Assembly: GCA_015059375.1 (NCBI GenBank)
Contig: SVAN01000004.1
Coordinates: forward strand, 142 to 64,141
Source: Bacillota bacterium
Lineage (GTDB): Bacteria; Bacillota_I; Bacilli_A; RF39; UBA660
Direction of reading: 5' to 3'
DNA: 64,000 nt
A program made the position numbers and the translations under genes. Below, one piece after another: positions 6,159 to 52,356 of this stretch. Position 1 is the first letter of the stretch, and every line of letters starts with the position of its first letter. The notes beneath the pieces are model-generated. The model was not told the origin of the DNA. It saw nothing but the letters and a program-made list of their open reading frames with translations, and did no database searches.

Positions 6159-7253
6159 ATGAAGCATAACAAGTACACGCTAATCATCGTTATAATAATG
6201 GCACTTATTTCTTTTATGTGCTTATCTTTAAGCGTGTCTTACTCTTATGTTTTACGTTCGCGCGTATCGGGAAATGCATTAGTAATTACAACTGGAAATT
6301 TAACTTCTACAGTTACATATACATCTAAAGATTTATTTTTAATTTCACAAAGTGATGATGACGGTTTAGCTCAAGACGAATATGGGATTATTAATATTGC
6401 TAAAAATAATGTTTATAGTGTATTTTACACGATGAATATTGGTTATGCAGTTGATGAACTTCCTTCGGACAAAACTGCTGCAGATTTATTACCAATGGAA
6501 TATATTAGAGTTGCGTTATATGAAATAAGTGGGGGATCATTAAGTGAAAATCCAATCGTGGGACCGATTAAATTAACTGATTTAACGGTATCTTCAGTTA
6601 ATGCTGATAGTGTATATCGTGACACTTTTTTATTAAATTATGGAACGTTTAATTCTGGTAATCAAACTAAAACATTTGGCTTAAAAGTTTGGCTTGATGA
6701 AAATACGCCAATAAGTTATGATGAATATTTAATATATTTAGGAATTAGTGTAAACCAAGAAACGTTAGTAAGCAAATCAATATATAATTTATCTGGTAAA
6801 GTGCTTAATTCAAGTGGTAGTGCAATAAGTGGTGCAACCGTTAAATTCCATAATGGAAAAGTTACCTCAACGACAGCTGCCGATGGGACATATAGTTTAA
6901 ATAATGTTCCAACCGGAACTTACAATATTTCAGTACTATATAATGGTGTCGAATATAAAACGACTATGCATGTTAAATATGGTCAAAGTGTTGCACTACA
7001 AAGTACAGGAGGCGCTACCGGAGCGGCAAGTACTTACCTACAAAGTAGTGCATATACATATTATACTTCTCCAGGCTTGATTATGTCTGCAAATAATCTT
7101 TCAACAACATCAAATCAATTAACGACATCAACTTATACAATTCCAAATGCGTATGTGTTAACAGGGCTAGAATCTTTAAGTATTTTATCAATTAATAACT
7201 TGAATTTAACGTTAAATAATGATAATACTTTAAGTATAGCGTTAGCGTCGTAG
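6159..7253 (+). CDS. secreted/anchored protein: divergent member of the local paralog family fused to a carboxypeptidase-regulatory-like beta-sandwich
   Basis: 364 aa. N-terminal n-region plus h-region ending in SVSYSYV (a variant of the SipW-class motif). Residues ~210-270, SGKVLNSSGSAISGATVKFHNGKVTSTTAADGTYSLNNVPTGTYNISVLYNGVEY, match the CarboxypepD_reg pattern. The C-terminal region is Ser/Thr/Asn-rich. Confidence 0.7.
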   Translation: MKHNKYTLIIVIIMALISFMCLSLSVSYSYVLRSRVSGNALVITTGNLTSTVTYTSKDLFLISQSDDDGLAQDEYGIINIAKNNVYSVFYTMNIGYAVDELPSDKTAADLLPMEYIRVALYEISGGSLSENPIVGPIKLTDLTVSSVNADSVYRDTFLLNYGTFNSGNQTKTFGLKVWLDENTPISYDEYLIYLGISVNQETLVSKSIYNLSGKVLNSSGSAISGATVKFHNGKVTSTTAADGTYSLNNVPTGTYNISVLYNGVEYKTTMHVKYGQSVALQSTGGATGAASTYLQSSAYTYYTSPGLIMSANNLSTTSNQLTTSTYTIPNAYVLTGLESLSILSINNLNLTLNNDNTLSIALAS

Positions 7254-7269: not shown

Positions 7270-7941
7270 ATGAAGACAGAAAGAATAAATATACCATTAA
7301 CTGCCATTTCCCTAATGTCGCTACTATTTATAACCATATCTGCGTCATATGCTTACTTTAGTTCCAAAGCGCAAGGCGATATAACTGTAAATACAAATGT
7401 AACAACTGTGGACGCGGCAACGTTTACTGCATACACATTGGATGCAATAGAGTTAAATGTTACTAGTGAAGATATGTTTTCGTCAAGTACTACACCAGCA
7501 AAAAGTGATAATGGCACAATTGTTGCATCACTAGCGTCTCCACAAGAAAATATTACTGTTAATTGCAGTTATGACATTGAATTAATCTGGGATACAACAG
7601 ATCAATATACCTCTCCAACAACAACTTTAGCAGCCCCATATCCATATGAAATATCATTATTGGGAACGCAAAGCGTAAGCGGAGATACAACAGGACATAC
7701 TTATACAGTAAGTTCATTAACAGAGACTAATTTAACAGGGTTTACTTGGAACGGAACCATAGGCGAAGTAGGGCGAAGTGCCAAAGTAATCTCTGGTGCA
7801 CAAATATATAGCAAATCGTTAAATGCAACGACAGCAACTTGGAACTTTACACTTAATTTTTATTCGTTGCCAACAGACCAAACCGCGATTACCGGCAAAA
7901 ATTATGGCGCTCATTTAGCGGTTACAAATGTAATTTGTTAA
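7270..7941 (+). CDS. secreted TasA/camelysin-like (SipW-class signal peptide) paralog 2
   Basis: 223 aa. Signal region ...LLFITISASYAYFSS, internal Cys99 (VNCSYDIELIW), C-terminal ...LAVTNVIC. RBS GGAAAGGGA sits just after the stop of the previous gene. Confidence 0.75.
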   Translation: MKTERINIPLTAISLMSLLFITISASYAYFSSKAQGDITVNTNVTTVDAATFTAYTLDAIELNVTSEDMFSSSTTPAKSDNGTIVASLASPQENITVNCSYDIELIWDTTDQYTSPTTTLAAPYPYEISLLGTQSVSGDTTGHTYTVSSLTETNLTGFTWNGTIGEVGRSAKVISGAQIYSKSLNATTATWNFTLNFYSLPTDQTAITGKNYGAHLAVTNVIC

Positions 7942-7968
7942 TTTGTGTTAAATTAGTAACAAAAACAC

Positions 7969-7997
7969 TTGCTAACTATAGCAAGGTGTGATAATAT
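7969..7997 (+). promoter_or_regulatory. putative sigma-A promoter of the central paralog
   Basis: TTGCTA (7969-7974), 17-nt spacer, TAATAT (7992-7997) with TG at the extended -10 position. An imperfect hairpin CACTTGCT/AGCAAGGTG overlaps it. Confidence 0.45.
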
Positions 7998-8025
7998 TTA
8001 TAATAGAAAGGAGATAACAAAAGAG

Positions 8026-8694
8026 ATGGAAAAAAGAAATACTTTATTATTAACAGTTATCGCAGTAGCTACATTATTAGTAGCAGTAGTAGGAGCTACA
8101 TTTGCATACTTCGCAAGTACATCATCAGTTACAAATACTTTAGATTTAAATACTACTACTCAAGCGAGTACAGCATCATTAACAGCTGAACAAGCTGCGT
8201 TAGCAATGACTGTGACACCAGACTTAATGCAAAAAGGTGATGCTAAGAATGAAGTTGCAAAATTTGCTACTGAAGATTTAAAAGTTACTTTATCTTCAAC
8301 TATGCCAGCGACTTGTACTTACAATATTTCTTGGGCTTGGGATTCAGGAGTAACTTATACACCAGTTGCTAGTCTTGATAGTTTAGGTGGTAAAGAATTT
8401 ACTATTGCTATTGCATATGCTGATAATAAGGCTACTGGTGATGAGGTAACTAATTCTGGTACACCAGGACAAAATATTACTTTAGGAACAACTGAAACAA
8501 ACTTTGATAAAGTTCCTGCAACTGTAATTACTGGTGCTAAGATTTATACTGATGGTACTGCTGCAACTATACAAACTTGGACAGTTACTGCTAGAGTTTA
8601 TAACTTAAATGCTGATCAAGCTAACCTATTAGGTGCTGAGGAAAAAGGTACATCATTTACTGGTAAATTCAGTATTACTGACGTAGTTTGCTAG
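8026..8694 (+). CDS. secreted TasA/camelysin-like (SipW-class signal peptide) paralog 3, probable major subunit
   Basis: 222 aa from ATG 8026 (RBS AAAGGAGA). Signal region LLVAVVGATFAYFAS is closest to camelysin GGTFAYFSD. Followed by TNTLDLNT, internal Cys97 (ATCTYNISWAW) and C-terminal ...FSITDVVC. It has its own promoter and terminator and noticeably different codon choice (GCT/ACT/GGT-rich). Confidence 0.8.
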   Translation: MEKRNTLLLTVIAVATLLVAVVGATFAYFASTSSVTNTLDLNTTTQASTASLTAEQAALAMTVTPDLMQKGDAKNEVAKFATEDLKVTLSSTMPATCTYNISWAWDSGVTYTPVASLDSLGGKEFTIAIAYADNKATGDEVTNSGTPGQNITLGTTETNFDKVPATVITGAKIYTDGTAATIQTWTVTARVYNLNADQANLLGAEEKGTSFTGKFSITDVVC

Positions 8695-8706
8695 TTATCT
8701 TATATT

Positions 8707-8738
8707 AAAAAAATCGACCATTTATTGGTCGTTTTTTT
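8707..8738 (+). terminator. rho-independent terminator after paralog 3
   Basis: CGACCA (8714-8719) pairs with TGGTCG (8725-8730), flanked by A-run and T-run. Confidence 0.7.
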
Positions 8739-8791
8739 GTTGTCATAAGCACCTAATTTGTGTTATTATATTATTAAGGTAGGAAACCGTA

Positions 8792-9451
8792 ATGAAGAGT
8801 GAAGAAAAGAATTATAAAACTGTTATGATTGCTGTTGTTTCTGTTATAGTGATGATAATTACAGTCACTTCTTTTACGTATGCCTTTTTTACTGCAAAAG
8901 TATCAACTCTAAATAATTTATCTATTAACGCTACAATTAGTGATGAATATAGTCCAGTTTTAACTGCTTATCCAAGTGGCGATTTGTCAGTTATGGTGAC
9001 AAGCGCAGATATGCTTGATACTGGAGCAAGTAGTGATAATACTTCAATAGGTGATTCTGCAAAGCAAAATTTGTATGTTACTTTATCAGCAGGTGGTGGC
9101 CAAGCAAATTCTTCGGTTACTTGTACGTATGATTTAGTTTGGAAAGATACTAGCGCAGCATCTTATGTTCCAAGTCCCAATGCCGTAAGTGAGAATTTAA
9201 AAGAATATACAATTAAAGTTATAGATAATACTGGTAGTGTAATCTATGCTGAAAATGGTGTGGATACAATGCTTTCGAGTGCAGTAAATAATGAGTTAAC
9301 TTTAGCTACTGGTTTAAGCATAGTTTCATCTGGGACAATGACAACTAAAACGTATACAGTAATTGCCACTATTTATAATTTAAATGTGGTTCAAAACATA
9401 TATAATAAAACTTATTCAAGTATGATTGGGGTTACTAATGTAACTTGTTAA
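8792..9451 (+). CDS. secreted TasA/camelysin-like (SipW-class signal peptide) paralog 4
   Basis: 219 aa. Signal region ...VMIITVTSFTYAFFTA, internal Cys111 (VTCTYDLVWK), C-terminal ...IGVTNVTC. Confidence 0.75.
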   Translation: MKSEEKNYKTVMIAVVSVIVMIITVTSFTYAFFTAKVSTLNNLSINATISDEYSPVLTAYPSGDLSVMVTSADMLDTGASSDNTSIGDSAKQNLYVTLSAGGGQANSSVTCTYDLVWKDTSAASYVPSPNAVSENLKEYTIKVIDNTGSVIYAENGVDTMLSSAVNNELTLATGLSIVSSGTMTTKTYTVIATIYNLNVVQNIYNKTYSSMIGVTNVTC

Positions 9452-9462
9452 GAGGGGTAAAA

Positions 9463-10098
9463 ATGAGTAGAAAAAATAAGACAATTGTGTGGCTTTTATT
9501 ATTTGTTTTTTTGATTGTAATATTTACATCACTGGGTACTTATGCTTTTTTTGAAGCTAGAGAATATTTCTATGGTAACTTTGATGTTGAAGTAACTACT
9601 AAAGGCGTTGATACCTTAGCGTTTACAGGTAATCATGATATTGAACTCGTGGCAAATGCCAATAATTTTGCTCCTGATATTGGTTATAATTTAACAGGAA
9701 GGGCTAAAATGGAGGTGAAGCTTGACACGACAAAAGCAAGTGCAAGTTATTGTTATGAACTTAAGATGAACTTGCCAGAAGAAAAAGTGTTTACATATTC
9801 AGTTGGGAGCAATCGACCAGATTTATTATTAAACGTGCGGTTTTCATCGGATGGAAAGCAATATGAAAGTATTATCAGCAATATGGATATTACTGAAAAA
9901 ACGGGAGTGATTGATATTCCAGTTGGTAAAGATGGTAATGTTTATTTACATAAAATTGAAACAACTAAAAATATTACAAATATTCATAATTGGCAAGCTG
10001 ATATAACTTTGGTATGGTTTGATGATGTTGATCAAGTAATTAATGATAATAAAACTTATAGTGCATTTTTAGAAGCAAAACGTGTAGATTGTAATTAA
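9463..10098 (+). CDS. secreted TasA/camelysin-like (SipW-class signal peptide) paralog 5 (most divergent)
   Basis: 211 aa from ATG 9463 (RBS AGAGGGG). Signal region ...LIVIFTSLGTYAFFEA, internal Cys97 (SYCYELKM), C-terminal ...KRVDCN (Cys penultimate). Confidence 0.7.
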   Translation: MSRKNKTIVWLLLFVFLIVIFTSLGTYAFFEAREYFYGNFDVEVTTKGVDTLAFTGNHDIELVANANNFAPDIGYNLTGRAKMEVKLDTTKASASYCYELKMNLPEEKVFTYSVGSNRPDLLLNVRFSSDGKQYESIISNMDITEKTGVIDIPVGKDGNVYLHKIETTKNITNIHNWQADITLVWFDDVDQVINDNKTYSAFLEAKRVDCN

Positions 10099-39041: not shown

Positions 39042-39100
39042 AAATCTCTTGAAATTACCTAATATAATATGATAATATTAAATCATAGAGGTGAGTGGAT

Positions 39101-39613
39101 ATGTTAAGAAACAAAGATGGTTTCACATTAGTAGAATTACTAGCAGTTATCGTTATTTTAGCGGTTGTTATGCTTATTGCTGTTACGGCTGTTGGACCAA
39201 TGATGACAAGGTCAAGAATTAGTGCATTAGGCACAGAAGGAATTAAAGTTATTGATGCAGCAAAAACTGCATATCAAGCTGAACAATTATCAGGAACTTC
39301 TGCAATTAAAGCAACTTCATCAGTATGTTTTGATTTAGCTTGGTTATACAACGAACAATATTTTGAAAAAGGTTCTGGTGCTAGTGGTGATGGATATGAA
39401 GGTTCTGTATTAGTTACATATTCAGGCGGAAAATATTCTTATAAATATTGGTTAACTAATAGTACTTATTGGTTAGTAGAAGCTGAAGCAAATGGTGGAT
39501 ATTCTGAAGTAAACAATACAACCGTTCGTGATAATGGAACTGGTTTAACAATGAATAACTGTGGCGGAGCTACAAGTGTTGTTAAATGTTCTGGCACTAG
39601 TGCGTGTGCATAG
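39101..39613 (+). CDS. type IV prepilin / pseudopilin-like protein (orphan)
   Basis: 170 aa from ATG 39101 (RBS AGAGGTGA). Class III signal MLRNKDG|FTLVELLAVIVILAVVMLIAV with Glu at +5. C-terminal Cys residues (NNCGG...VVKCSGTSACA) suggest a disulfide loop. Confidence 0.85.
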   Translation: MLRNKDGFTLVELLAVIVILAVVMLIAVTAVGPMMTRSRISALGTEGIKVIDAAKTAYQAEQLSGTSAIKATSSVCFDLAWLYNEQYFEKGSGASGDGYEGSVLVTYSGGKYSYKYWLTNSTYWLVEAEANGGYSEVNNTTVRDNGTGLTMNNCGGATSVVKCSGTSACA

Positions 39614-51885: not shown

Positions 51886-51912
51886 TAATGAGCACAAGAA
51901 AGGGTGAATAAA

Positions 51913-52356
51913 ATGAACAATAACACAAACGGATCCGGTAACTGCATTAATGAAATTTTATCAGTTATCCTAGTTCTTCAAGAAAACGCTTGCCCAGATA
52001 ACTGCTTAGATACATGCGATAGACCAATGCTAGGAGGCGGAGCAAACTGTTTAATTTGTAACACTAGGCCAGTAATGCTTTATACTTGCTGCGGAAATGG
52101 TGTTCCATGGAGTATGCCGACGAGTAAAGATAACATGACAAATTGTAGTGGTGAACCTTTAGAAAATACTTGTTCAACTGTCTTTAGAGTTGAAAAAGTT
52201 GAGGGCAATTGCTGTACCTTTAGAGTACTTGCTTCCAATCCGGACGAAACTTCATTAAATCCATATGTTGCAACAAATTCTTTCTTTACAATGGATTGTA
52301 GTTGCTTATGTAGTATTAGATGTTTATCTGATACCTATGTTGATTGTGTTTGCTAA
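51913..52356 (+). CDS. CotY/CotZ/ExsY-family Cys-rich spore coat/exosporium protein
   Basis: 147 aa from ATG 51913. [26 protein letters not shown] parallels CotY [41 protein letters not shown] parallels FFRVEKLCDCCATLSIL. C-terminal [11 protein letters not shown]. Confidence 0.75.
   Translation: [147 protein letters not shown]

Follow-up and report, generated by a model that had tools for sequence, protein, structure and literature searches.

A near-invariant cysteine pair in an unnamed exported protein family of a Bacillota bacterium: a probable intramolecular disulfide

Four adjacent genes, designated A1 to A4 (positions 7270 to 10098, + strand), were analyzed in a 64,000-nucleotide stretch of contig SVAN01000004.1 from a Bacillota bacterium of the RF39 lineage; the whole stretch is referred to here as the window. 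The analysis indicated that A1 to A4 are tandem paralogs of an unnamed exported family in which two conserved cysteines, Cys99 and Cys223 in A1 numbering, most likely form an intramolecular cross-strand disulfide. An initial annotation of the window had noted the cysteine pair and had offered two options, an intramolecular disulfide pinning the last beta-strand or an intermolecular one locking subunits head-to-tail as in Bacillus endospore appendages (Ena). The first option was supported by the joint retention or loss of the two cysteines, by the even cysteine counts of family members, and by a ladder of coevolving positions that brings the two cysteines face to face.

In the proposed scheme, each protein would be exported via a TasA/SipW-type signal peptide, cleaved after Ala28, and folded into a beta-sandwich whose last strand would be stapled to the strand of residues 97–107 by the Cys99-Cys223 bond. 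Cys99 would lie at the start of this strand, the third long strand of the core, and Cys223 directly after the last strand (residues 211–222). Such a staple would stabilize the extracellular module against unfolding, proteolysis or shear.

Conservation of the cysteine pair

Translation of the four genes agreed at every position with the earlier statement that each paralog of about 220 residues has exactly two cysteines in its mature part, and the internal and terminal motifs quoted in that statement were all correct. A1 (7270–7941, + strand, 223 residues) carries Cys99 in the motif VNCSYD (codon 7564–7566) and Cys223 as its last residue in VTNVIC (7936–7938). A2 (8026–8694, + strand, 222 residues) carries Cys97 in ATCTYN (8314–8316) and Cys222 in the terminal ITDVVC (8689–8691), and A3 (8792–9451, + strand, 219 residues) carries Cys111 in VTCTYD (9122–9124) and Cys219 in the terminal VTNVTC (9446–9448). 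In A4 (9463–10098, + strand, 211 residues), Cys97 is located in SYCYEL (9751–9753) and Cys210 in RVDCN (10090–10092), where it is followed by a single Asn. The first cysteine thus sits in a C[ST]Y[DN] or YCYE motif about 70 residues into the mature chain, and the second is the last residue in A1 to A3 and the penultimate one in A4. This numbering depends on the ATG codons at 8026 for A2 and at 9463 for A4, which are the better-supported starts, with ribosome-binding sites (AAAGGAGA and AGAGGGG, respectively) upstream; the open reading frame (ORF) lister had placed both starts at upstream TTG codons, and the ATG starts reproduce the numbering of the initial annotation.

A profile built from the four paralogs found 35 clusters, all of them proteins without names from metagenome-assembled genomes (MAGs), and all 35 closest homologues had exactly two mature cysteines. 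Five columns were invariant in the 35-sequence alignment (Ala28, Cys99, Ile179, Gln204 and Cys223), and in an alignment of 126 sequences, which extended down to 14% identity with a mean column identity of 21%, the only invariant columns were the two cysteines. Such a pattern greatly exceeds chance expectation. An exhaustive profile search retrieved 1,816 cluster representatives (50% identity) at a threshold of E ≤ 1e-3; at E ≤ 1e-10 the number was 1,001. A second, word-indexed homologue search with a broad profile returned 28 proteins, none of them named, and no names were obtained by cluster look-up for the family. A wider set combined the family proteins of the alignments above with 187 family ORFs taken from 84 related loci; the loci were fished with N-terminal patterns from an A2-type alignment, and N-terminal conservation in this set is therefore biased.

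The alignment of homologues from related genomes, which the initial annotation had proposed as a check on cysteine conservation, showed both cysteines in 284 of 302 fully aligned, non-identical members and neither cysteine in 15. In the other three, the first cysteine was apparently absent and a cysteine was found 15–18 residues downstream instead, with the total count remaining even. No clear loss of a single cysteine was found among the 302 members. When mature cysteines were counted in 307 single-domain members, 5 had none, 2 had one, 266 had two, 4 had three, 25 had four and 5 had six, so that the count was even in 301; in two of the four members with three cysteines, the extra one lies inside the signal peptide. 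Extra cysteines, present in 30 members, always occurred as pairs 5–12 residues apart, nested between the canonical two. The even counts and the paired extra cysteines constitute a classical structural-disulfide signature and indicate that disulfides form in this domain.

The position of the second cysteine relative to the C-terminus was more variable than the four paralogs suggest. The initial annotation had emphasized a cysteine at the very C-terminus, which is present in A1 to A3 but is specific to a subfamily: among 248 strictly aligned members, no residues follow the second cysteine in only 104 (42%), whereas 1–2 residues follow it in 26, 3–15 in 79, 16–100 in 3, and more than 100, comprising further domains, in 36. 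The second cysteine is thus internal in 58% of the members.

These observations bear on the possibility that the C-terminal cysteine serves as a covalent attachment site to lipid, to the cell wall or through a thioester, including a Cys-Gln thioester with Gln204, which we regard as very improbable. Gln204 is part of a motif F-Y-N-L-x-x-D-Q in the loop preceding the last strand and is kept in 301 of the 302 aligned members, and the YCYE sequence of the A4 type is superficially similar to the cysteine motifs of thioester domains. However, joint loss of both cysteines is not required by a single attachment cysteine, the second cysteine is more often internal than terminal, and A1 to A4 showed no sign of a thioester domain, a lipobox or an LPXTG motif; their C-termini read NV[IVT]C or DCN, without the LPXTG sorting signal of sortase-assembled pilins. 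The thioester variant was rejected, given that Gln204 is kept in members without either cysteine and that there was no Pfam match to a thioester domain. The same retention indicates that the role of Gln204 is independent of the cysteines. Besides the cysteines, the near-invariant positions of the family were Ala28, Tyr29, Phe30, Tyr101 and Gln204.

The source genomes were without exception MAGs of uncultured gut bacteria; the samples came from goat, sheep, rabbit, chicken, mouse and Hadza, and the genomes were labelled as Bacilli, "Mycoplasma sp. CAG:472" or Tenericutes, with a few labelled as Muribaculaceae. The family occurs in hundreds of species-level genomes, apparently only in uncultured Bacilli that live in the gut of ruminants, rabbits, chickens, mice and humans and are related to Mycoplasma-like lineages. 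In long relatives the module is followed by DUF285/BspA-like, FN3/PKD or DUF6273 domains, which fits a surface location; the bacteria concerned are poorly understood, and the family probably contributes abundant proteins to their surface or matrix. The cysteine pair is in itself most likely a structural disulfide of a routine kind; it serves to flag a very large unnamed family, of at least 1,816 clusters, that has neither a Pfam or NCBIfam model nor a solved structural relative.

Predicted fold and the location of the bond

Structure prediction with AlphaFold2 (AF2) yielded confident models of A1, both for the full-length protein (predicted local distance difference test, pLDDT, 90.9) and for the mature part with the 126 sequences (pLDDT 94.0, predicted template modelling score 0.85). 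In the full-length model, a helix at residues 7–33 corresponds to the signal peptide and is followed by a low-confidence segment at about residues 34–50. The N-terminal extension (residues 29–50) was thus predicted to be flexible and residues 51–223 to form the beta-sandwich, with strands at 51–58, 60–63, 78–89, 97–107, 128–137, 149–154, 170–181, 187–197 and 211–222. The C-terminal block had a pLDDT of about 97, and the terminal cysteine is accordingly modelled as ordered. The mature domain is predicted by these models to be a compact sandwich of eight to nine strands, and it has no close solved relative. No match to the mature domain was found in Pfam and NCBIfam, no relative was found by sequence search of the PDB, and a Foldseek search of the PDB with two confident models gave no match at E < 1e-3, with best template modelling (TM) scores of about 0.3. 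Weak Foldseek matches included the PapG pilin domain (TM ≤ 0.33), RrgB, AbpA and Ena3A.

Mean-field direct coupling analysis (DCA) was carried out on 305 sequences (effective number, Meff, 281). Among 22,366 pairs, (102,220) ranked 1st, (106,217) 15th, (99,223) 21st and (108,215) 47th. These pairs belong to an antiparallel ladder with i+j = 322–323 that joins the strand of residues 97–107 with the C-terminal strand; the mean score of the i+j = 322 ladder (z = 4.4) was equalled by only 0.12% of comparable ladders. In this register Cys99 faces Cys223, just past the last strand pair, 100:222, in agreement with the DSSP strand boundaries of the model. We infer both that the bond is formed and that it lies within one chain, and an intramolecular disulfide is the most likely state of the pair. 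The intramolecular bond is favoured because the two cysteines are predicted neighbours within a single, confidently modelled domain, because the second cysteine often precedes a tail or further domains, and because the N-terminal extension is devoid of cysteines (0 of 248 members).

An intermolecular disulfide, in which Cys99 would bond Cys223 of the next subunit, head-to-tail or through a swap of the C-terminal strand, and would lock a polymer as in Ena, is unlikely. Polymerization would be compatible with the tandem paralogs and with the flexible, conserved N-terminal extension, the terminal cysteine is sterically accessible, and the DCA contacts could in principle be between chains. Nevertheless, both cysteines are predicted to be adjacent in one confident domain and would pair in cis first, and the large domains that follow the second cysteine in 36 of the 248 members also argue against it. 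Ena fibres use a Cys-Cys motif, borne on an N-terminal connector, that bonds two core cysteines of other subunits (10.1101/2020.08.21.260141), whereas in the present family the extension has no cysteine and both cysteines are inside one domain. An Ena-like connector was rejected on this ground. Small beta-sandwich subunits with conserved cysteines in a Firmicute are shared with Ena1A/B and Ena3A, the DUF3992 proteins; among the genes of the window there is also one for a CotZ-like spore coat protein. There was, however, no Pfam match to DUF3992 in A1 to A4 or in the neighbouring gene product A0 (described below), and Foldseek similarity to Ena3A (8pdz) was negligible (TM 0.15–0.26). The family also differs in having a signal peptide, whereas the paper describing Ena (10.1101/2020.08.21.260141) mentions none for its subunits. 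The Ena-like head-to-tail option of the initial annotation was therefore not borne out.

Several observations weigh against parts of the proposed reading. DCA is blind to the difference between a contact within one chain and an identical contact between chains. The fold does not require the bond, as fifteen relatives have neither cysteine. The hosts live as anaerobes in the gut and belong to the Firmicutes; aerobic Firmicutes have been reported to exclude cysteine from exported proteins (PMC2823432), and no CxxC protein of a Dsb-like or thioredoxin-like type could be found among the ORFs of the window. A signal peptidase was likewise found in the window neither by regular-expression search nor by tblastn with a SipW-type protein from a related locus (L004). 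Finally, as regards fibre formation, DCA showed only a weak enrichment of couplings between the N-terminal extension and strands b3 and b8, at the 93rd–95th percentile and not significant.

The anaerobic hosts, the reported avoidance of cysteine and the lack of an oxidoreductase in the window also speak for an alternative in which the pair would be reduced in the anoxic gut and serve in metal binding or redox sensing, for example by being oxidized only on meeting oxygen. This alternative is judged quite improbable, in view of the even-number rule and the close extra pairs in 30 members, which are typical of structural disulfides, and of the lack of a conserved His, Asp or third cysteine that would complete a metal site. 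Moreover, a type IV pilin-like protein encoded in the same window has four mature cysteines. This protein and the extra cysteine pairs of the family suggest that extracellular disulfides are formed by these bacteria. Because aerobic Firmicutes are reported to avoid cysteine in exported proteins, it would be unusual for anaerobic members of the phylum to export proteins with a near-invariant disulfide, and such a bond implies that the organisms can oxidize the proteins they export.

Export signal and comparison with fibre-forming proteins

The signal region was the best-conserved part of the family, with Ala at -1 in 97% of members, Thr, Ser or Ala at -3, and Tyr, Phe at +1/+2, giving the consensus A-T-[FY]-A/Y-F (the slash marks the cleavage site). 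Signal peptides were predicted at residues 1–28 of A1 (7270–7353), 1–27 of A2 (8026–8106), 1–31 of A3 (TSFTYA/FF; 8792–8884) and 1–28 of A4 (9463–9546). The SipW-type signal peptide model TIGR04088 scored 18.3 bits on A2, against a cut-off of 19, and sub-threshold matches were obtained in 3 of 11 relatives. Alignment with TasA by hhalign placed the cleavage site TWA/AF over TFA/YF. Genes for SipW-type signal peptidase I (TIGR02228, 66–113 bits, cut-off 51.85) were located within 10 kb in 14 of the 84 loci, and in L004 such a gene begins 40 nt downstream of a 519-residue family member. The enzyme that would cleave the signal peptide is probably a signal peptidase I of the archaeal/SipW type.

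The first 30 or so residues of A2 (8026–8118; MEKRNTLLLTVIAVATLLVAVVGATFAYFAS) were identical or near-identical across many relatives (P0041, P0047, P0052, P0059, P0060 and others), the mature parts of which were only 36–51% identical. Such conservation of a signal peptide is unusually strong, its extent being biased by the pattern-fished data. In six loci (L038, L039, L045, L052, L071 and L082), proteins encoded beside SipW genes resembled the family over the N-terminal 50–77 residues or so only, and had a different mature part with four cysteines (for example residues 82, 89, 127 and 144). More than one domain family therefore appears to make use of this export signal. Upstream of the 519-residue family member of L004 (1–12101), P0056, an F1-like ATPase cluster (ATP-synt_C, two ATP-synt_ab and ATP-synt gamma) and a gene for a 62-residue Flp-like pilin were found.

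Kinship with TasA and camelysin, implied in the initial annotation, was supported for the signal peptide and not for the mature domain. In common with TasA, CalY (camelysin) and BsaA, which are biofilm fibre proteins of Firmicutes that depend on SipW, and with the archaeal AbpA, the family has a hydrophobic core ending in G/A-T-aromatic-A followed by aromatic-F, with the cleavage site aligning with that of TasA; it also has archaeal/SipW-type peptidase genes recurring nearby, a size of about 200 residues, and tandem paralogs. Membership of the mature domain in the TasA/camelysin group was rejected on the basis of Pfam, NCBIfam, PDB sequence search, hhalign and Foldseek with two models. No match to Peptidase_M73 (PF12389) was obtained by hmmscan of A0 to A4 at E ≤ 1, hhalign of the 126-sequence profile with TasA aligned residues 1–32, the signal peptide, only (9.7% probability), and in the Foldseek search for a TasA-like jelly-roll TasA (8aur, 5of1) was not among the top 50 matches and AbpA (7ueg) scored a TM of 0.21–0.26. 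The earlier statement that TasA lacks such a cysteine pair was correct for Bacillus subtilis TasA, whose sequence, checked against PDB 8aur, has no cysteine, unlike the near-invariant pair of the present family.

A further comparison is with other pilins, namely those of the chaperone-usher type and, in their D-region, type IV pilins; in both, a conserved intradomain disulfide stabilizes an exported beta-rich subunit, and the N-terminal extension of chaperone-usher pilins mediates polymerization. The family differs in its fold, which is not significantly similar, in its Gram-positive-type host and in the absence of chaperone or usher neighbours. No class III signal or N_methyl motif of type IV pilins (G/F-T-L-x-E) was matched in A0 to A4.

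It is plausible, from the comparison with these systems, that the A1–A4 domain builds surface fibres or stalks with the N-terminal extension as a donor strand. The mature N-terminal 20 residues or so were disordered in both AF2 models, and hydrophobic residues alternate there in a conserved motif (positions 40, 42 and 44); TasA and BsaA likewise have a flexible mature N-terminus with an amphipathic strand motif, and their equivalent N-terminal region is the polymerizing donor strand (PMC9674648, PMC11580942). It may reasonably be inferred from this that several paralogs would make up fibres whose adhesive ends would be A0 or the long relatives, the latter with adhesin-like domains at the C-terminus. 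A fully specified version, an undescribed SipW-dependent fibre with A0 as tip or anchor and A1 to A4 as shaft, joined by the N-terminal strand, is tentative and rather doubtful; in it the cysteine pair would staple the acceptor edge or, less likely, lock subunits. If fibres form, the SipW-dependent theme of TasA and BsaA would be extended to a new fold with a new stabilizing device. BsaA subunits are locked by Asn-Lys isopeptide bonds and not by disulfides (PMC11580942), and the cysteine pair would then be the disulfide counterpart of that lock.

Gene organization and neighbouring genes

The window has a G+C content of about 30%, with nearly all genes on the + strand. A1 to A4 are preceded by A0 (6159–7253, + strand), which encodes a 364-residue partner, and the five co-directional genes lie between RNase J/DUF2383 genes and a ZIP transporter gene. 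The arrangement is found in related MAGs, as in L001 (RNase J, DUF2383, genes of 362, 221, 216 and 210 residues, and ZIP). A0 has a family-like N-terminal signal region (SVSYS/YV) and a mature part unlike that of the family: a CarboxypepD_reg-like domain occupies residues 211–279, and there is no mature cysteine. The hidden Markov model of the family matched only residues 1–66 of A0, corresponding to the signal region and the first strand, with divergent sequence beyond. A0-like genes of about 370 residues were the commonest neighbours of family genes; in 33 of the 84 loci such a gene lay no more than 4 kb away. An internal sequence of A0, SSAYTYYTS (residues 295–303), looks like a signal-cleavage motif.

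A terminator-like hairpin followed by a T-run, which is bidirectional, was found 3' of A2 (8715–8731, + strand), and the sequence upstream of A3 (8740–8769) contains a promoter-like site whose -10 element is extended. These features, which come from consensus scans only, suggest that A0-A1-A2 and A3-A4 are two transcription units. N-x-S/T sequons were enriched in mature A1 (7357–7938), with nine found and 3.7 expected from composition (shuffle p about 0.002), and were not enriched in A0, A2, A3 or A4.

The gene for the type IV pilin-like protein with four mature cysteines is located at 39095–39613; the protein has an N_methyl motif (E 2.4e-8), and three of the cysteines are in its last 20 residues (…NNCGGATSVVKCSGTSACA). 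Several type IV pilin-like genes also flank family genes in each of 11 loci (L044, L046, L051, L064, L065, L066, L068, L073, L076, L078 and L083), an arrangement reminiscent of BsaA, for which secretion associated with type IV pili has been reported (PMC11580942). A functional link to type IV pilins was dropped as evidence, as Der GTPase and ZIP genes intervene in L073, and the proximity is probably inherited synteny in one lineage.

A gene at 51904–52356 encodes a cysteine-rich protein of 150 residues that matched Spore-coat_CotZ (E 6e-13), which suggests that the organism forms spores with an outer layer of the CotY/CotZ type. The presence of genes for a penicillin-binding protein, FtsW/SpoVE and this CotZ-like protein indicates that the organism is walled and probably spore-forming.

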